DNA of 47,246 nucleotides from Gammaproteobacteria bacterium (GCA_030830685.1 JAURMM010000133.1:1-47246), one strand, 5' to 3'; counted from the stretch's first letter, positions 30,995-39,425 are shown. The notes: generated by a model from the sequence alone, not told the origin. Translations and numbers: made by a program.

Positions 30995-31115
30995 GGAATT
31001 TGATTGACCTCGCTATACTCGGGAGAAACCGGGGCTGGATATTATCAGGCAGGGCTTGTGCCATCCCATGGCGAGCGCACTGCCCCGCGAATGAATCTTG
31101 AGGGAGACTGTACCC

Positions 31116-33188
31116 GTGGATACCCGTCTGGGCGACCTGAGCGATCCGACGCTCTACATCAACCGTGAGCTGTCGTTGCTGGAGTTCAACCGGCGGGTCC
31201 TGGAGCAGGCCAAGGACGAGGGCAATCCGCTGCTGGAGCGCTTACGCTATCTCTGCATCTCCAGCAGCAATCTGGACGAGTTTTTCGAGATCCGGGTTGC
31301 CGGCCTCAAGGAGCAGGTTGCCTTCAATTCCGGGCAGATGGGCCCGGATCAACTCACGCCATCCGAACAGCTCAAACGCATCGGGGAAGTTGCACACCAG
31401 TTGGTCGCCGAGCAGTACCGGGTGCTCAATGACGTTCTGACGCCGCAGCTGGCAGACGAGGGAATCCGCTTCCTCAAGCGCAGTGAGTGGAATGTGAAGC
31501 AGGCGCAGTGGGTGAAGCGGTACTTCTACCGTGAACTGCTGCCGGTGCTGAGCCCCATCGGGCTCGATCCCTCGCACCCCTTCCCGCGCATCCTGAACAA
31601 GAGTCTCAACTTTCTCGTGTCATTGGAGGGCACCGATGCCTTCGGGCGCAACAGCGTCATCGCCATCGTGCAGGCGCCCCGCGCGCTGCCGAGAATCATC
31701 AACATTCCTGCTTCTTACGCCAGCAGTGCTCACGAATTCGTCTTTCTGTCCTCCACCATCCATGCCCATGTCGAGGATCTTTTTCCGGGCATGGAGGTCA
31801 CCGGCTGCTATCAGTTCCGTGTGACACGCAACAGCGATCTCTTCGTGGACGACGAAGACGTGGAAGATCTCCTGCACGCGCTTGAAGGCGAGCTGCACCA
31901 ACGCCGCTTTGGCGATGCAGTGCGCCTGGAAGTGGCAGTCGAGTGCCCGGACGAGATGGTTTCCCTGCTGCGCAGCGAATTCGAGTTGGGGCCGGAGGAC
32001 ATCTATCGCTGCAACGGCCCGGTGAATCTGACGCGACTCATGGCGGTGCCGGACATGATTGAGCGTCCTGAGCTGAAGTTTTCCTCATTCACGCCCTCGC
32101 GGCCGCGCCAGCTCCCGGTCGGCATCGATTTCTTCGAAGCCATGCGCCAGAACGATCTGCTGGTGCACCACCCTTACGAGTCCTTCTCACCGGTGGTGGA
32201 ACTGTTGCGCCAGGCCGCCGCTGACCCCGACGTCCTCCTGATCCGTCAGACCCTGTACCGCACAGGACCGGACTCGCCGATCGCCAGGACGCTGGTTGAG
32301 GCGGCGCGCGCGGGCAAGGAAGTCACGGTGGTCGTGGAGCTCAAGGCGCGTTTCGATGAGGAAGCCAATATCGAACTTGCCACCCGCCTGCAGGAGGCCG
32401 GGGCACACGTCGTGTATGGTGTCGTCGGTTACAAGACCCACGCCAAGATGATTCTCATCGTGCGGCGCGAGGGCAAGCAGCTGCGTCGTTATGTGCACCT
32501 CAGCACCGGAAACTACCACCCGCGTACGGCCCGCCAGTACACCGACTTCGGATTCTTCACCTGCGACAACACCGCAGGAATGGATGTACAGAAGATCTTC
32601 CACCAGCTCACCGCACCCGGTCGGGCGCTGCGCCTGAAGAAGCTGTTGCAGTCACCCTTCACGCTACACCAGAGCGTGGTGGCGATGATCGAACGCGAGG
32701 CGAGCCACGCCTCCGCCGGGCGGCCCGCGCGCATCGTCGCCAAGATGAACTCACTCATCGAGATCAATGTGATCAAGGCGCTGTATGCGGCATCCCAGGC
32801 GGGGGTGAAGATCGAGCTAATCGTGCGCGGAATCTGCGCGCTGCGTCCCGGCTTGCCCGGAATCTCGGACAACATCCGTGTCCGCTCGATCGTCGGCCGC
32901 TTTCTGGAACATTCGCGCATCTTTCATTTCCAGAACGATGATAACCCCGAGGTGTACCTCTCCAGCGCAGACTGGATGGAACGCAATTTCTTCAATCGCA
33001 TTGAAGTGTGCTTCCCTGTCGAGGACAAGCGTCTGCGCGAGAGGGTGTTGCGCGAAGGGCTTGAGATCTACCTCAACGACAACAGCCGCGCCTGGCTGCT
33101 GGATGCGGACGGGCACTATCACCGCGTGCGAGCCGGTGGCAAGCCGCGGGATGCACAGGCCCAGTTGCTGGCCAAGCTTGCGGAGTGA
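31116..33188 (+). CDS. ppk1: Polyphosphate kinase 1
   Basis: YINRELSLLEFNRRVL, SNLDEFFEIRVAGL, HHPYESF, ELKARFDEEAN, KTHAK, HLSTGNY, IVRGICAL, GRFLEHSR, SADWMERN; GTG 31116 with GAGGGAG upstream (ORF track opens at 31098). Confidence 0.98.
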   Translation: MDTRLGDLSDPTLYINRELSLLEFNRRVLEQAKDEGNPLLERLRYLCISSSNLDEFFEIRVAGLKEQVAFNSGQMGPDQLTPSEQLKRIGEVAHQLVAEQYRVLNDVLTPQLADEGIRFLKRSEWNVKQAQWVKRYFYRELLPVLSPIGLDPSHPFPRILNKSLNFLVSLEGTDAFGRNSVIAIVQAPRALPRIINIPASYASSAHEFVFLSSTIHAHVEDLFPGMEVTGCYQFRVTRNSDLFVDDEDVEDLLHALEGELHQRRFGDAVRLEVAVECPDEMVSLLRSEFELGPEDIYRCNGPVNLTRLMAVPDMIERPELKFSSFTPSRPRQLPVGIDFFEAMRQNDLLVHHPYESFSPVVELLRQAAADPDVLLIRQTLYRTGPDSPIARTLVEAARAGKEVTVVVELKARFDEEANIELATRLQEAGAHVVYGVVGYKTHAKMILIVRREGKQLRRYVHLSTGNYHPRTARQYTDFGFFTCDNTAGMDVQKIFHQLTAPGRALRLKKLLQSPFTLHQSVVAMIEREASHASAGRPARIVAKMNSLIEINVIKALYAASQAGVKIELIVRGICALRPGLPGISDNIRVRSIVGRFLEHSRIFHFQNDDNPEVYLSSADWMERNFFNRIEVCFPVEDKRLRERVLREGLEIYLNDNSRAWLLDADGHYHRVRAGGKPRDAQAQLLAKLAE

Positions 33189-33214: not shown

Positions 33215-34789
33215 TCAGCTGGCGAGCGGTTGCGCCAAGCGCCGCACCAGCCACAGGATACGCTCGAAGATACCGGTCGCGACGAACAGCGCCTGGCGTT
33301 CTTCCTTGCCTTCGCCGGCCTGCGCGAGCAAGGCGCTGCGAATCTGCTCCATGAGATCACTGCGATCGGACGTCAGTTCGTGCAGGATTTCCTCGTTGTC
33401 CTCACCTGTGGCCAGCTGATCTGCCAGCAGGCCGAGAATCAGATGCAGTGATTCAGTCATCGAGGACGCGAGGCCCTCATGCCCCTCTTCCCGGCCCAGG
33501 GTCTCCACATACCCATGGAGTGCATCGAGCAGGGAACGCAAGGTGTCGTTGCGCCCCTGCAGCGCAAAGATGCGCGCCACCCATTCATCTGCCCCGCCCT
33601 GAGCGGTGGTCTCGGCGATGAATTCGGCGATGCGCGTACTGAGCGCGGTCGCACCCTGATGCCAAGCCTCACCTGACAGGACTTCGGCCTCCGGATCCAC
33701 TGTGAGCCTCAGAGGATCAAGCGCGCGAGGGAGCTCCCGAATCAACTCCTGCTGCTCCCGGTCTGCCAGCGTGAGCGCCGTCTCTGGATAACGTTCAGCA
33801 TCCGCATACAGGTGCCTTGGCGTGAACCGGCTCCCTGCCGCGTGAGCGCCGGCCAAACGCGCTACCAGCACCAGGGCTTTAGACTGAAAGAGTCCCCCGA
33901 CCAGTGCTCCGGCCAGTTGCAGGAGCAGGTAGAGACAAGCCACCAGGGTAGGCACCGGCACCTCAAGCTCGGCCACGCCGGCCAGCATGGCTGCCGGGTC
34001 TGGAAATGACAGCAGCCACGGCAGCACTGCCAGTACACCCAGCACCTTCACCACGCACTGCCACAGGGCCAGCTGGCGCGGCACTCCCACCAGGTGCGAG
34101 GTCACGAGCGCAACGCTCAAGCCCGAGCCCAGGCTCGCACCACAGACCAGCAGCAGCGCTTCCCGGATAGGCAACACTCCGGACAGATTCAAGGTCACCG
34201 CGAGCACGCTGACGGTAGCAGACGACTGGGCAATCAAGGTCACGATGAGACCGATCAACACCGCAATGGCCGGTGACTCCGCCGAAAACTCGAAGAATTC
34301 GATCACCCAGGGCGCGGCTCGGAGCACCACAGCGCCGTCCTTGATGAGACCGAGGCCCAGCATCAGGATGCCGAGGGCGAAGGCCAGCGTGACCAGATGC
34401 CGTGCGGTGGGATGACGGTTTACGTTGAAGAGATAGGCCAAAGCCACACAAGCGATGGCGTGCAGGCCAATCAGCCGCACATCCACGGCTGCTAGAAATA
34501 CCAGCAGCGAAGTCCCCACGCTGGCCCAGGCACTCAACGTCATGGCGCCTGCAAGCGTGAGTGCGCCGGCATCCAGCAGCCCGATGCAGATGAAGGCTGC
34601 AGCGCTGGTGCTCTGGGTCAAGGCGCCGAGCACCACGCCAGTCAGCGCGGCAGACGACGCACCGCCGGTGACTCGTCCGAGCAAGGCACGGGCGCGGCGC
34701 CCTGCCACGGCCTGCATGCCCTGGGAGAGCAGATGCAGCCCGCTTAGGAAAAGACCGAGGCCAGCAAGACTCGCGGCCGTCTGGCTCAT
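33215..34789 (-). CDS. Na+/Pi-cotransporter family (YjbB/NptA-like) membrane protein, divergent
   Basis: GLGLFLSGL, two repeats with QSTS (aa 59-62) and QSSA (aa 188-191), WASVGT and GASLGS in place of GANIGT; helical soluble C-terminal region of PhoU-like type. Confidence 0.8.
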   Translation of the reverse strand: MSQTAASLAGLGLFLSGLHLLSQGMQAVAGRRARALLGRVTGGASSAALTGVVLGALTQSTSAAAFICIGLLDAGALTLAGAMTLSAWASVGTSLLVFLAAVDVRLIGLHAIACVALAYLFNVNRHPTARHLVTLAFALGILMLGLGLIKDGAVVLRAAPWVIEFFEFSAESPAIAVLIGLIVTLIAQSSATVSVLAVTLNLSGVLPIREALLLVCGASLGSGLSVALVTSHLVGVPRQLALWQCVVKVLGVLAVLPWLLSFPDPAAMLAGVAELEVPVPTLVACLYLLLQLAGALVGGLFQSKALVLVARLAGAHAAGSRFTPRHLYADAERYPETALTLADREQQELIRELPRALDPLRLTVDPEAEVLSGEAWHQGATALSTRIAEFIAETTAQGGADEWVARIFALQGRNDTLRSLLDALHGYVETLGREEGHEGLASSMTESLHLILGLLADQLATGEDNEEILHELTSDRSDLMEQIRSALLAQAGEGKEERQALFVATGIFERILWLVRRLAQPLAS

Positions 34790-34800
34790 CGCGTGAGGCC

Positions 34801-35508
34801 TCAGTCGCGCAGCTTGCGCAGCGCGCCGAAGAGGGCGAGACCCACTATCACCAGGGCTGCCGTCACCACCGCAAGCAAGGTTGTGCGGAGTGTCTGGTAG
34901 CGCTCGAGCATCTGGCGGGAGAGCGCAGCACGCTGGCGGGTGGCGAGATCACTCAGCGCGCCGCTCAGTGCATCCAGTCGTTGCTCCAGTGCCCGATCGA
35001 CGCCTCGCACCCGGCGATCAACCAGCCTCGATTGCGCCAGCGGCAAGCTGTCCCGCGTGGTGAGGGCATCTGAAAGCGCGCGGTCATACACTGTGCTGAG
35101 CGCATCGAAGTCACGGCGCAGGGCCTCGATCTCCCGCGCATGACCGGAAAGCTGGTGAGCGGAGATTTCCCGGGAGAGCTGGCTGAGGATGGCATCCACG
35201 CGTTCACGCCGGGCATGAAACGCGGTTCTGTAATGATGGAGCTCGTCCGGTTCGGCGCCGCGCAGAAGGATGTTCTTCCATTCCTGTACCTGAATTTTGA
35301 ACTCCACCTGCGCCTGCGTGCCGAGACGCGCTGTCTCGCGCAGCCCCTCTGTTTCTTCAATGCCGCGGTTCCAGGCGCGATTCATGGACCAGATCGAAAA
35401 CAGGGACAGCAACCCCACCACCACCAGCACCCCTACCAGTGTGGTGGAAACCGAGATCAGCGCGCTGCGCAGGAGCGCGCTTCGGAGTTTGAGTGTTGGG
35501 GTGTTCAT
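34801..35508 (-). CDS. Two-TM membrane protein with chemoreceptor-type periplasmic four-helix bundle and no cytoplasmic output domain
   Basis: TM about aa 17-40 and 211-230; FKIQVQEWKNILLRG (70-84) and VDRRVRGVDR (163-172); only RKLRD follows TM2. Confidence 0.75.
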   Translation of the reverse strand: MNTPTLKLRSALLRSALISVSTTLVGVLVVVGLLSLFSIWSMNRAWNRGIEETEGLRETARLGTQAQVEFKIQVQEWKNILLRGAEPDELHHYRTAFHARRERVDAILSQLSREISAHQLSGHAREIEALRRDFDALSTVYDRALSDALTTRDSLPLAQSRLVDRRVRGVDRALEQRLDALSGALSDLATRQRAALSRQMLERYQTLRTTLLAVVTAALVIVGLALFGALRKLRD

Positions 35509-35514
35509 GGGATC

Positions 35515-35548
35515 AGCCTACAGGGTAAATGTGACCGCACGGTATCTC
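35515..35548 (-). promoter_or_regulatory. Candidate Pho half-box and -10 for the four-helix-bundle/Na-Pi genes
   Basis: Minus strand CGGTCAC (35537-35531), 10-nt spacer ATTTACCCTG, TAGGCT (35520-35515), 6 nt, then ATG; upstream half-site GAGATAC is poor. Confidence 0.35.
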
Positions 35549-35552
35549 GAAC

Positions 35553-37043
35553 TCAGCGCACGCGCAGCTTCAAGCCCGCAGCCTTGAGGAAACCGGCTTC
35601 CTGTTCGAGATCTGCAGCGACCAGTGCGTGGTCATCGAGCCACAGCTTGGGCAGGACGAGCCGCAGATTCGCACCGTCCACGGTGACGGACATCGCCGGT
35701 AATGCTTGCGCCCTGCGCGCCCTGTGCAGCACCACCGCAAGCCGCAACAGGACACTCAGGCGCCGGCAAGGTTCGCGCTCCGGTTCCGGCAGCTGGACGA
35801 GCTCGGCCTGGGGAAACTTGCGTCTGTGGGCACGCACCAGGAAACCCAGGCGCCGCTGCTCGCCACGCGAAAAACCCGGCATGTCGAGATATTGGAGAAG
35901 GTAGGCGCCGTGTTTCTGGTACTGGGAATGGGACACGCTGGAGCCAATCTCGTGCAGGCGCGCGGCCCAGCGCAGCAGCTGCCTATACGCCGGATCTGTC
36001 AGATTCCAGGCCTCGGCCGCGAACATGTACAAGGCATCAGCGGTCGCCATGACACGAGCGGTCTGGGCTGCATCCACGTGAAAGCGTTGTGCCAGTGCTT
36101 CTACCGTGTGATCACGGATGTCTTCATGCTCGATACGCCCGACGAGGTCATAGAGCACGCCCTCCCTGAGTGCGCTGGTGGAAACCTGCATCTGTTCAAT
36201 GCCAAGTTCTTCAAAGGCGGCCATCACAACGGCGAATCCGCCGGGAAACACCGCGCAGCGGTCTTCGCGGATGCCGAAGCGTGCCAGCTGGTCTACATGC
36301 CCGAAGTCGAGCAGCGCCGCCCTCAGCCGTTGGAGACCGGCGCGGGTGATGCCTTCTGCACTGAACTTGTGCAAGGCCAGGGCATCCGCCACTGCCAGCA
36401 AGGTGCCGGAGGAGCCGATGGCAGACTGCCAGCCTTCACGGCGGAATTGCTCCTCGATCGGTTCGAATTCCTGGCCGGCGGCAAGCTCTGCCGCTCGCAG
36501 GCGCTTGGTGTCGATGCCCCCGTCACTGAAAAACTGTGCGGTCATGCTCACGCATCCCATATGGAGGCTTTCCATGATGCGCGGCTCATGGCGCCGACCG
36601 AGGATGAGCTCGGTACTGCCGCCGCCGATATCCATGACGAGGCGCTGACCGGCAACCTCGGCAAGGCCGTGCGAAACACCCACGTAGATGAGACGGGCTT
36701 CCTCGATCCCGGACACGATGTCGATCGGGTGGCCCAACAGGCGTTCGGCCCGACGCAGGAAAATATCGGCGTTGCGGGCCCGGCGCAGGGCGTTGGTCCC
36801 CACCGCCCGTACCGCACCCGCCGGCAGGTGCCGCACCCGTTCGCCAAAGCGCTGCAAGCACCCTAACGCAGTCTCCATGGCGTCCGCCGTGAGACTGCCC
36901 TCGGCATCCAGACCTGCACCCAGACGGGTCACCTCCCGCAGCCTGTCCAGCACCTTGAGATGCCCGGGACGCGGCTCGGCCACCACCAGATGGAAACTGT
37001 TGGAGCCAAGGTCGATGGCCGCGATGGGATGGGATTGGGGCAT
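35553..37043 (-). CDS. ppx: Exopolyphosphatase (Ppx/GppA family)
   Basis: AAIDLGSNSFHL, RAVGTNALR, ISGIEEARL-type IVSGIEEARLIY, MDIGGGSTE, HD region LHEIG, GFSRGEQ. Confidence 0.93.
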   Translation of the reverse strand: MPQSHPIAAIDLGSNSFHLVVAEPRPGHLKVLDRLREVTRLGAGLDAEGSLTADAMETALGCLQRFGERVRHLPAGAVRAVGTNALRRARNADIFLRRAERLLGHPIDIVSGIEEARLIYVGVSHGLAEVAGQRLVMDIGGGSTELILGRRHEPRIMESLHMGCVSMTAQFFSDGGIDTKRLRAAELAAGQEFEPIEEQFRREGWQSAIGSSGTLLAVADALALHKFSAEGITRAGLQRLRAALLDFGHVDQLARFGIREDRCAVFPGGFAVVMAAFEELGIEQMQVSTSALREGVLYDLVGRIEHEDIRDHTVEALAQRFHVDAAQTARVMATADALYMFAAEAWNLTDPAYRQLLRWAARLHEIGSSVSHSQYQKHGAYLLQYLDMPGFSRGEQRRLGFLVRAHRRKFPQAELVQLPEPEREPCRRLSVLLRLAVVLHRARRAQALPAMSVTVDGANLRLVLPKLWLDDHALVAADLEQEAGFLKAAGLKLRVR

Positions 37044-37154: not shown

Positions 37155-38975
37155 GTGATCCAGAAGCTCCGCAATATCGCCATCATCGCGCACGTCGATC
37201 ATGGCAAGACCACACTCGTCGACCAACTGCTCCGTCAGTCCGGCACCCTCAACCAGCGCAAGGATACGGGCGAGCGCGTGATGGACAGCAATGATCTCGA
37301 GCGCGAGCGCGGGATCACGATTCTTGCCAAGAACACCGCCATCACCTGGGGCGATTACCACATCAACATCGTCGACACCCCCGGCCACGCCGATTTCGGT
37401 GGCGAGGTGGAGCGCGTGCTGTCCATGGTGGATTCGGTGCTGCTGCTGGTCGATGCGGTGGAAGGCCCGATGCCCCAGACCCGCTTCGTGACGCACAAGG
37501 CGTTCGCGCAAGGCCTGAAGCCCATCGTGGTGATCAACAAGATTGATCGACCCGGCGCACGTCCGGACTGGGTGCTGGATCAGACTTTCGATCTCTTCGA
37601 TCGCCTGGGCGCAACGGAAGAACAGCTGGATTTCCCCGTGATCTATGCCTCGGCCATGCTTGGCTATGCCAAGCACACGCCAGGCGGTTCCGAGACCGAC
37701 ATGACTGCGCTGTTCGAAGCCATCGTCGCGCACGTGCCGCCGCCGGATGTGGATACCGAGGGTCCGTTCCAGATGCAGGTCAGCTCGCTCGATTACTCGA
37801 GCTATGTGGGCGCCATCTGCATCGGCCGCATCAAGCGCGGCACCATCCGCCCGAACACCAATGTCACCATCATCGATGCACAGGGTGCCACACGTAACGA
37901 GCGCATCCTGGAGGTGCTCGGCTTCCATGGCCTCACGCGCGAGGCACGCAGCGAAGCCAGCGCCGGCGACATCGTGGCACTCACCGGCATCGAGGCACCC
38001 CGCATCTCGGACACACTGTGCCTGCCCACTGCCGTGGAAGCGCTTCCCGCACTGCTGGTGGATGAACCCACGGTGAGCATGAGTTTCGAGGTTTCTGATT
38101 CGCCGTTCGTGGGTCGTGAGGGCCAGTTCGTGACGAGCCGTCAGCTCGGTGAGCGTCTGCAGCGCGAACTGATTCACAACGTGGCCTTGCGCGTAGAGCC
38201 GACCAACGATCCGAAGGTGTTCAACGTATCAGGACGCGGCGAGCTGCATCTGGCAGTGCTCATCGAGAACATGCGGCGCGAAGGGTATGAGCTGGCAGTT
38301 GGTCGCCCGCAGGTGATCCTGAAGGAAATCGATGGCGAGATGTGCGAACCCTACGAGCAGCTCACCGTGGATGTGCCTACGGAAGCACAGGGTGCGGTGA
38401 TGGAGAAGCTGGGTTCCCGCAAAGGCACGCTCAACGACATGGTGCCGGACGGCAAAGGTCGCGTGCGCCTCGACTACTCGATTCCCTCACGGGGCCTCAT
38501 CGGTTTCCGCACCGAGTTCATGACCGCCACCTCGGGTGAAGGCCTCATCTACCACACCTTCGAGAAGTATGCGCCAGTGAAGCCAGGAAACCTCGGCGGC
38601 AGGGTGAACGGGGTGCTCATCTCGAACGGGGAAGGCAAGGCACTCGCCTACGCCCTGTTCAGCCTGCAGGAGCGCGGACGTCTGTTCGTGGGCCACGGGG
38701 ATGAAGTGTATGAAGGCATGATCATCGGCCTGCATTCACGCGACAACGATCTGGTCGTGAACCCGCTGAAGGCCAAGCAGCTGACCAACATCCGCGCCGC
38801 GGGCAGTGATGAAAATCTCCTGCTGACGCCCCCCATCCGCTTCGATCTGGAGCAGGCGCTGGAATTCATCGCGGATGACGAGCTGGTGGAAGTCACGCCG
38901 GGCGCCATCCGCGTGCGCAAGCGCATGCTGAAGGAAACCGATCGTAAGCGCGAATCCCGCCAGAAATCTGCCTGA
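37155..38975 (+). CDS. typA: Translational GTPase TypA/BipA
   Basis: [55 protein letters not shown]. Confidence 0.97.
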
Positions 38976-38987
38976 ACCACGGCCGCC

Positions 38988-39425
38988 GTGATCGCGCTCC
39001 TGCAACGGGTGACCGAAGCACGTGTCACGGTGGCAGGCGAGATCGCGGGGGCGATAGGTGCCGGCGTGCTGGCCTTCATCGGTGTGCAACCGGCGGATGA
39101 TGCCTCGAGTGCCCGTCGCCTCGTCGAACGTATCCTCGGCTACCGGATCTTCGCGGATGAAACAGGCCGCATGAACCGCGCCCTGCCGGAGGTCGCAGGC
39201 GGCCTCCTGCTGGTGCCCCAATTCACACTCGCTGCGGACACCCGCAAAGGGACTCGCGCGAGCTTCACCAGTGCAGCGCCGCCGGCGCTGGGTGAAGTGC
39301 TGTTCCAGGCCTGCGTGGACTTCGCCCGTGAACAACACCCGGTGGTGCAGACCGGTCGTTTCGGTGCCGACATGCAGGTTGCCTTGATCAATGACGGCCC
39401 GGTCACCTTCTGGCTGGAGGCCTGA
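38988..39425 (+). CDS. dtd: D-aminoacyl-tRNA deacylase
   Basis: MIALLQRVTEA, PQFTLAADTRKGTRASF, GRFGADMQVALINDGPVT (Gly-Pro motif). Confidence 0.95.
   Translation: MIALLQRVTEARVTVAGEIAGAIGAGVLAFIGVQPADDASSARRLVERILGYRIFADETGRMNRALPEVAGGLLLVPQFTLAADTRKGTRASFTSAAPPALGEVLFQACVDFAREQHPVVQTGRFGADMQVALINDGPVTFWLEA

Follow-up and report, generated by a model that had tools for sequence, protein, structure and literature searches.

A stand-alone CtpH-type receptor domain encoded beside bacterial phosphate transporters: a candidate phosphate-sensing subunit

The stretch of DNA analyzed here (47,246 nt from Gammaproteobacteria bacterium, GCA_030830685.1 JAURMM010000133.1:1-47246), termed the window at its full length, encodes on its minus strand a 235-residue membrane protein, referred to below as the sensor, that is a member of the sensor-domain family containing the part that binds the ligand (ligand-binding domain, LBD) in CtpH, the inorganic phosphate (Pi) receptor of Pseudomonas aeruginosa. 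The protein ends directly behind its second transmembrane segment (TM2), with no cytoplasmic output domain, and its gene is followed after 11 nt by one for a Na/Pi-cotransporter-family protein, an arrangement that recurs in several bacterial phyla. Our best reading, which we regard as moderately probable, is that the sensor is a Pi-binding regulatory subunit of the adjacent transporter, where both Pi binding and contact with the transporter are inferred from homology, conservation of the candidate site, synteny and Pho boxes.

The sensor protein and its domain family

The sensor gene and the parts of its product are located in the window as follows.

34801..35508, minus strand: sensor gene, 235-amino-acid (aa) output-less CtpH-type protein (open reading frame, ORF, with ATG start)
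35389..35460, minus strand: first transmembrane segment, TM1 (aa ~17-40; from hydropathy, alignment and short-versus-long conservation)
35257..35301, minus strand: motif 1 (aa 70-84), candidate ligand site at the membrane-distal end of helix 1
34993..35022, minus strand: motif 2 (V163-D-R-R-V-R-G-V-D-R172), candidate ligand site in a short helix and the turn before helix 4
34816..34884, minus strand: TM2 (aa ~209-231), followed by RKLRD only (from hydropathy and alignment to CtpH)

The ORF, hydropathy and structure prediction agree on the layout read in the initial annotation of this DNA, namely TM1, a ~170-aa helical periplasmic region that forms a four-helix bundle, TM2, five residues and a stop. 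The two hydrophobic segments extend over aa 11-45 and 205-233 (Kyte-Doolittle 19-residue windows >1.6), and the C-terminal end, GALRKLRD, lies right behind the second of them. The N-terminal tail, with three Lys or Arg and no Asp or Glu, the RKLRD of the C-terminal tail and the hydropathy fit an N-in/C-in topology that would place ~170 residues outside. Scans with Pfam and NCBIfam gave no match of the sensor to HAMP, MCPsignal, HisKA or GGDEF, with HAMP and MCP absent even at expectation values (E) up to 1, which bears out the initial view that HAMP, methyl-accepting chemotaxis protein (MCP), kinase and GGDEF domains are all missing; what these scans returned was noise, E 0.002 or weaker and far under the cut-offs. 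Some sources tag homologs as methyl-accepting chemotaxis proteins, a wrong label for the stand-alone form, and the sensor itself was rejected as an MCP since the HAMP (PF00672) and MCP (PF00015) domains are missing and the protein ends 5 residues past TM2. Membership of the PhoU family was likewise rejected, as the PhoU domain (PF01895) gave no match.

The LBD of CtpH (PA2561, aa 60-214) binds Pi with a dissociation constant (KD) of 22 uM and pyrophosphate (PPi) with one of 31 uM (PMC4926252), and Pi causes it to dimerize (Rico-Jimenez et al. 2016, PMC4926252). Within this Pi-binding LBD, the sequence of PA2561 given in supplementary Fig. S1 of PMC4926252, whose letters were taken from a machine-read PDF with one obvious O corrected to Q, contains FRGQVQEWKNVLLRG and DQAVTGIDR, so that both of the motifs ascribed to CtpH in the initial annotation are indeed there. 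Motif 1 of the window protein is FKIQVQEWKNILLRG (F70 to G84), and the signature F-[KR]-x-QVQEWKN-x-LLRG plus D-x-x-V-x-G-x-DR is found both in the window (aa 70-84 and 164-172) and in CtpH. The alignment proposed at that stage was significant by two methods: BLASTP aligned the window protein with the CtpH N-terminus, all the way from helix 1 to TM2, at 31% identity over 178 aa (E 1e-10), and hhalign of a 70-member profile against CtpH gave a probability of 99.5% (E 4e-22). The aligned part extends through TM2 to LWLVNRN of CtpH, where HAMP begins at aa 236, and the window protein ends at the point where HAMP helix AS1 starts in CtpH. By homology, motifs and fold the window protein is thus a CtpH-type sensor domain, sharing with CtpH the order of TM1, four-helix bundle and TM2 together with both signature motifs. 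It differs in that CtpH runs on into HAMP and an MCP signaling domain and feeds the chemotaxis pathway, whereas the window protein stops five residues past TM2 and is paired with a transporter; in addition, K71 and R168 of the window protein are Arg and Thr, respectively, in CtpH, and the CtpH orthologs form a Pseudomonadaceae clade of their own.

The protein looks like an orphan because no Pfam model covers the CtpH LBD or the sensor family, as found by scanning both. The window protein matched neither 4HB_MCP_1 (PF12729) nor TarH (PF02203), and nor did the CtpH LBD; just one of the 70 family members reached 4HB_MCP_1, at E 0.01. A model of the sensor calculated by AlphaFold2 (AF2) from the 70-sequence alignment has a mean predicted local distance difference test score of 94.7, with helices at residues 3-83 (TM1 and helix 1), 87-117, 121-149, a short one at 157-167, and 172-234 (helix 4 and TM2), and is predicted to consist of TM1, a periplasmic antiparallel four-helix bundle and TM2. 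Its best geometric fits in a Foldseek comparison with the PDB are four-helix-bundle receptor domains, the Vc1313-LBD first (TM-score 0.77, root-mean-square deviation 3.7 A), followed by a NarQ sensor-transmembrane fragment and PcaY, none of them at E 1e-3 or better. Searching PDB sequences with a profile of the sensor family returned designed coiled coils and transmembrane noise only.

Homologs were sought by a word-indexed protein search and an exhaustive search of 1.84 billion cluster representatives. The former found 107 proteins, ~85 of them of 210-245 aa, with identities from 93% down to ~28%, and the homologous clusters at E 1e-128 to 1e-13 number more than 100; the latter gave 1,434 matches at E <=1e-3 and 310 at E <=1e-10 (all counted as cluster representatives). 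Among the top 150 representatives, 120 are of <=300 aa and 28 of >=480 aa, and all 70 of the stand-alone members that were aligned end within a few residues of TM2. Since the homologs end at this point, which the initial annotation had wanted checked, the sensor represents a family rather than a truncation, and it is a bona fide module of signal-transduction proteins that also exists without any output. The ratio of nonsynonymous to synonymous substitution rates (dN/dS) of the sensor gene against its closest relative, locus L010, is 0.20 (dS 0.62).

Seven columns are invariant in the 70 members (K71, E76, W77, L81, R83, D164 and D171), and G169 and R172 are conserved in at least 90% of them. 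The long relatives are MCPs, histidine kinases (some of them hybrid) and one PAS-GGDEF cyclase, with HAMP after TM2 in most of those sampled. Comparison of 187 non-redundant short relatives with 57 long ones showed both motifs to be conserved alike in the stand-alone and fused forms, with the motif residues kept at 74-100%, most at >=90%; the equally conserved positions are F70, K71, Q73-N79, L81-G84, Y93, F97, Y141, D164, V167, G169, D171 and R172. This equal conservation argues that the stand-alone and fused forms bind the same ligand. By the helix boundaries of the AF2 model, these equally conserved positions all lie in the membrane-distal third of the bundle, and it is in this third that four-helix-bundle receptors such as Tar bind their ligands. 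The segment LFSIWSMNRA, at the periplasmic end of TM1, is conserved in the window's clade of stand-alone proteins, and within it L36 and F37 are conserved in stand-alone members only.

Linkage to phosphate transporters

The gene that follows the sensor gene, and the gap between the two, are:

33215..34789, minus strand: partner gene of the Na/Pi-cotransporter family, 524 aa (Pfam PF02690, E 2.6e-33)
34790..34800, minus strand: 11-nt spacer between the sensor stop and the transporter ATG (from ORF boundaries)

The sensor stop codon occupies 34801-34803 and the downstream ATG is at 34789, so the 11-nt distance to the next gene given in the initial annotation is exact. The partner protein contains two PF02690 repeats followed by a ~180-aa C-terminal helical domain of unassigned family; it scores 77.6 bits against NCBIfam Na_Pi_symport (cut-off 50) and has QSxS and G-x-x-x-G-T/S motifs at aa 59, 88, 188 and 217. 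The repeat motifs WASVGT and GASLGS carry Ser instead of the usual Asn; this substitution was considered as a hallmark of the sensor-linked transporter clade and discarded, as about half of 30 sensor-linked transporters keep Asn. The partner is also not of the NptA/YjbB type with a C-terminal PhoU domain, in that aa 310-524 gave no match to PF01895 even at E 10, and the hhalign alignment with an NptA-PhoU protein ends at residue 346, where the PhoU domain of the latter starts. Foldseek gave weak hints for the C-terminal part (1sum, TM-score 0.55; 3kmi, TM-score 0.66; both E >0.1), which could be PhoU-like but highly divergent, or else of a different kind. This helical and cytoplasmic domain (aa ~347-524; 33215-33750, minus strand) is conserved in the clade, with R484, R510 and W513 invariant.

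The linkage is not peculiar to the window. In all six distinct contexts that were found by protein identity, the next gene is a Na_Pi_cotrans gene of 525-552 aa, after a gap of 6 nt in four of them, 2 nt in one and 122 nt in one. When one genome per species was scanned with the pattern QEWKN[IVL]LL, >600 stretches matched, 576 of which are relatives. The best 80 loci were kept, and their ORFs are either short (212-290 aa) or long (539-852 aa), with a clean split between the two. Among the 32 short genes, a Na/Pi-type gene comes next in 28, including three cases that run off the contig end and were detected by six-frame searches; in another 3 the next gene is of the PiT/PHO4 type, whole or as a fragment (E 3e-98, 6e-99 and 6.5e-26, the last for the fragment in L023). 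The long ORFs among the best 80 loci have no transporter neighbor. Spacers in the homologous loci are mostly 3 to 32 nt, or a 4-nt overlap, with two of ~100-120 nt. The PiT/PHO4 genes (PF01384) start 2 to 14 nt after the sensor (L030:3935-5703 and L031:1518-3370, both from metagenome-assembled genomes (MAGs) of Syntrophales, and L023:82-1245), and the PiT-linked short genes come from Syntrophales or deltaproteobacterial MAGs, with the PHO4 gene fragmentary in L023. Pairing with two unrelated Pi-transporter folds is the strongest argument that the function concerns phosphate. It also bears on the proposal, made in the initial annotation, that the module must act through a partner membrane protein: to this is now added a candidate, the downstream Pi transporter, which accompanies 31 of the 32 stand-alone genes and comes from two unrelated families; the contact itself is presumed. 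Carriers are found among the Alpha-, Beta- and Gammaproteobacteria, Verrucomicrobiota, Lentisphaerota and Thermodesulfobacteriota, and the cultured ones are Azospirillum sp. TSO22-1 and Teichococcus deserti M3.

A tree built from the periplasmic region places CtpH together with 31 Pseudomonadaceae MCPs (support 100) and the window protein in a clade of 20 (support 98) that are nearly all short and Na/Pi-linked. The PiT-linked short proteins are a clade of their own (support 99) nested among MCPs of Burkholderiales and Rhodocyclales, and because of this separate nesting the output-less state is concluded to have arisen at least twice. The partner transporters form one clade (support 100) apart from the classical NptA-PhoU proteins, and since most of the groupings of the sensor tree are recovered in the transporter tree, sensor and transporter appear to have been inherited largely as a unit. 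A stricter formulation, that the partner clade always carries a sensor, fails on three nested members with no sensor gene within 3 kb (L090, L091 and L092, from Sphingomonas sp., Roseomonas sp. WA12 and a metagenome contig), which are gene-free for 250-340 nt upstream; a PBP_like_2 (PstS-like) gene is near L090. These three sit singly inside the partner clade, so the sensor has been lost or moved several times, and their existence means that the transporter does not absolutely need it. Two placements stand apart. A 555-aa long relative from Parvibium lacunae KMB9 (L038:3986-5653) falls within the window protein's clade, whose other members are stand-alone, and does so on a very long branch; this could be a re-fusion or a placement artefact. 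The sensor of L053 (CAMAXW010000010.1), labeled 'MAG: Klebsiella pneumoniae', groups with those of Burkholderiaceae and Sterolibacterium and its transporter with those of two unclassified proteobacterial MAGs, and the label looks doubtful.

Gene context, Pho boxes and transcription

Pho-box-like sequences were sought as the direct repeat TGTCA-N6-TGTCA, with >=9/10 positions matching, within 200 nt upstream of the short gene. They are present in 11 of 37 loci versus 8 of 1,174 control windows (0.7%), a binomial p of 1e-15 that is uncorrected for relatedness; examples are CTGTCATCCAACCGTCAT, CTGTCACGCGTATGTCAT and CTGTCATGAAACTGTCAC. Textbook-like Pho boxes, with TGTCA half-sites 11 bp apart, are seen upstream in L001, L004, L012, L014, L016, L017, L020, L051, L068 and L087, and the one in L014, checked by hand, is about 45-60 nt upstream of the sensor start. 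One locus also has pstA/pstB-like genes and an alkaline phosphatase. These repeats suggest that PhoB controls the two-gene module in the lineages that have them, and the module appears to be part of the Pho regulon in many lineages.

The surroundings of the sensor-transporter pair in the window are concerned with polyphosphate:

35509..35552, minus strand: 44-nt spacer between ppx and the sensor gene, transcribed (metatranscriptome contig), with no full Pho box
35553..37043, minus strand: ppx (exopolyphosphatase), co-oriented and upstream of the sensor gene (Pfam Ppx-GppA, E 1.8e-75, and Ppx-GppA_III)
31098..33188, plus strand: ppk1 (polyphosphate kinase 1), convergent with the transporter gene (all four PP_kinase Pfam domains)

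Because it sits behind ppx and next to ppk1, the module is here tied to polyphosphate turnover. No match to a sigma-70 promoter or a terminator was found in the 44-nt gap, and none to a promoter upstream of ppx. In L010, the closest relative, the ORFs agree with those of the window in size, order and strand, the only features compared, and one of ppx length lies before the sensor. Beyond ppx, an ORF on the plus strand at 37155-38975 reads, from letters near its N-terminus, like a TypA/BipA-type GTPase, and the next, at 38988-39425 on the same strand, like a small D-aminoacyl-tRNA-deacylase-like protein; in L010 an ORF of 606 aa, the length of the GTPase-like one, lies divergently upstream of the ORF in the ppx position.

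DNA of the window was found in estuary and marine metagenomes, and two metatranscriptomes, the matches being estuarine, have contigs on the sensor gene. One metatranscriptome contig of 204 nt is identical to 35180-35382, and an RNA-run contig of 151 nt with 1 mismatch (35397-35547) includes the start codon together with 39 nt of the gap to ppx. Contigs of RNA runs can include some DNA and are therefore modest evidence of transcription; because they cover both the gene and the gap, the sensor gene is concluded to be transcribed, probably along with ppx or directly behind it. The possibility of a leaderless transcript that begins at the sensor ATG was considered, and the 151-nt contig, which extends over nearly the whole gap, argues against it.

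A candidate regulatory subunit and its alternatives

The reading that we prefer, a Pi-binding regulatory subunit, can be formulated as follows. The sensor would be a bitopic (N-in, C-in) inner-membrane protein with a periplasmic CtpH-type bundle and no cytoplasmic signaling domain. Pi, and possibly PPi, would be bound at the membrane-distal site formed by F-K-x-QVQEWKN-x-LLRG and D-x-x-V-R-G-x-DR, as it is by the CtpH-LBD, and binding would bring about either dimerization, as measured for the CtpH-LBD, or a shift of TM2 as in Tar/NarQ. This change would be relayed by TM1 and TM2 of the sensor straight to the transporter encoded 11 nt downstream, whose uptake or release of Pi might thereby be tuned to the external Pi concentration, and the sensor would be the periplasm-facing counterpart of the cytoplasmic PhoU-type accessory regulators. 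In this scheme three points are deduced, namely that Pi is bound, that the sensor touches the transporter, and the direction in which regulation runs. A wider proposal, which we put forward tentatively and at somewhat less than an even chance, is that such pairs are a widespread class of ligand-gated secondary Pi transporters, in which a chemoreceptor domain, freed at least twice, became an extracellular Pi-sensing allosteric subunit, the outward counterpart of PhoU, with partners of the Na/Pi type in Pseudomonadota, Verrucomicrobiota and Lentisphaerota and of the PiT type in Syntrophales.

Several observations weigh against a Pi-binding regulatory subunit. Among the family members a measured ligand was found for CtpH alone, which means that the shared motifs could be structural rather than Pi-contacting, and the machine-read CtpH sequence may hold small errors. 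The Foldseek E-values of the sensor model are not significant, no PDB match reaching E 1e-3. One stand-alone gene of the 32, L046, has no transporter downstream, and the three sensor-less transporters of the partner clade, which are more distant (31-35% identity), have no sensor gene within 3 kb. The Pho-box counts are uncorrected for relatedness and the 11 positive loci amount to about 7 lineages, and the window copy itself is without a Pho box, both in the 44-nt gap and upstream of ppx, the regions scanned. The motif at the end of TM1 is mostly a trait of the window's own clade and is thus weak evidence for an interface. Finally, ligand binding by the stand-alone members, and their interaction with transporters, are predictions.

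The foremost alternative, which we consider unlikely, is that the sensor is a tethered substrate-capture subunit, where the bundle binds Pi and hands it over, or raises the local Pi concentration, and has no allosteric role. The homology to the CtpH LBD, the conserved site at the tip and the tight pairing with two Pi-transporter families would all be explained in this way, and the Pho boxes suggest use when Pi is scarce. A KD of 22 uM, as in CtpH, is, however, modest for scavenging, and four-helix-bundle receptor domains are known from textbook examples such as Tar and NarX/NarQ as signal transducers and not as delivery proteins. Moreover, according to the AF2 model the conserved site would be at the membrane-distal tip, far from the entry to the transporter, and transporters without a sensor exist in the same clade.

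Next in rank, and likewise improbable, comes a role as co-sensor for another protein, such that the sensor reports external Pi or flux to a kinase (PhoR, for example) or forms heterodimers with full-length receptors that contain the same domain. Heterodimers are conceivable given that MCPs, histidine kinases and diguanylate cyclases carry this domain, and known Pi-transporter accessory proteins act on PhoR (PMC13170248). Co-sensing pairs of transporter and sensor, for instance DctA-DcuS and LysP-CadC, are established in textbooks. In the contexts that were looked up, however, no kinase or receptor gene is conserved beside the pair, the transporter being the only conserved neighbor.

Less probable again is a ligand-independent structural or assembly subunit, a stabilizer or chaperone whose motifs are needed only for folding of the bundle. 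Synteny and co-inheritance fit any obligate subunit of this kind. Pairing with two unrelated transporter folds is not what one would expect of a purely structural subunit, nor is retention of the exact residues of signaling receptors, the Pi-binding CtpH included, and the loss of the sensor is tolerated in the transporter clade. That the gene is a pseudogene, the truncated remnant of a chemoreceptor or kinase gene, as the end of the protein exactly at the TM2/HAMP boundary of its fused relatives might suggest, is refuted by the conservation data, with >100 clusters of 212-245 aa in several phyla ending at the same point and a dN/dS of 0.20, and by the next gene, 11 nt on, being a transporter and not a HAMP/MCP remnant, and the sensor gene being transcribed.

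Comparison with known systems and significance

A regulatory subunit of the kind proposed would resemble several known systems without being identical to any. PhoU with PstSCAB, PitR with PitA and the PhoU domain fused to NptA are accessory regulators that are each tied to one Pi-transporter family (PMC13170248). Like the sensor, these are small proteins or domains genetically tied to a Pi transporter and thought to regulate Pi homeostasis (PMC13170248), but they are cytoplasmic and have the PhoU fold, while the window protein is membrane-anchored, faces the periplasm and has no PhoU domain, nor does its partner transporter have a detectable one. With Tar and NarX-NarQ the sensor shares its predicted fold and topology, the best structural fits being four-helix-bundle receptors and the NarQ sensor-transmembrane fragment, and its conserved site, near the distal end of helix 1 and where helix 4 starts, matches the place at which four-helix-bundle receptors such as Tar usually bind their ligands; unlike them, the window protein has no significant match to Pfam TarH or 4HB_MCP_1 and has neither HAMP nor output. 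DctA-DcuS, LysP-CadC and BceAB-BceS are pairs of a transporter with a membrane sensor that are believed to exchange signals inside the membrane, and the pair proposed here would be similar. There, however, the sensor has an output and is informed by the transporter, whereas the sensor in the window has no output domain and information can therefore flow only to the partner. The open-access literature yielded no description of the domain family, of its output-less form or of the link to transporters, and no protein besides CtpH reported to bind Pi through a receptor domain. The novelty lies in the architecture in which a known receptor domain is found here and in the functional partnership proposed for it.

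It has long been asked how bacteria sense phosphate outside the cell. To our knowledge, PhoR is without a true periplasmic sensor, and PhoU, PitR and the NptA PhoU domain, the accessory regulators known so far, are all cytoplasmic. The family that the domain described here defines is large, with >1,400 cluster representatives at E <1e-3 that include MCPs, kinases and cyclases, and the form that lacks an output is hard-wired to Pi transporters with two unrelated folds, often behind Pho-box-like repeats. Pi or PPi is thereby predicted as the ligand of hundreds of unannotated receptors. If the sensor gates or regulates its transporter, a receptor domain would have been recycled into a new means of controlling a transporter, in which external phosphate is sensed directly at the transporter itself, and the pair would provide a simple two-protein system where transmembrane signaling by a four-helix bundle could be read out as transport. 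Such a module would be of relevance for the cycling of phosphate and polyphosphate in estuarine and freshwater bacteria.

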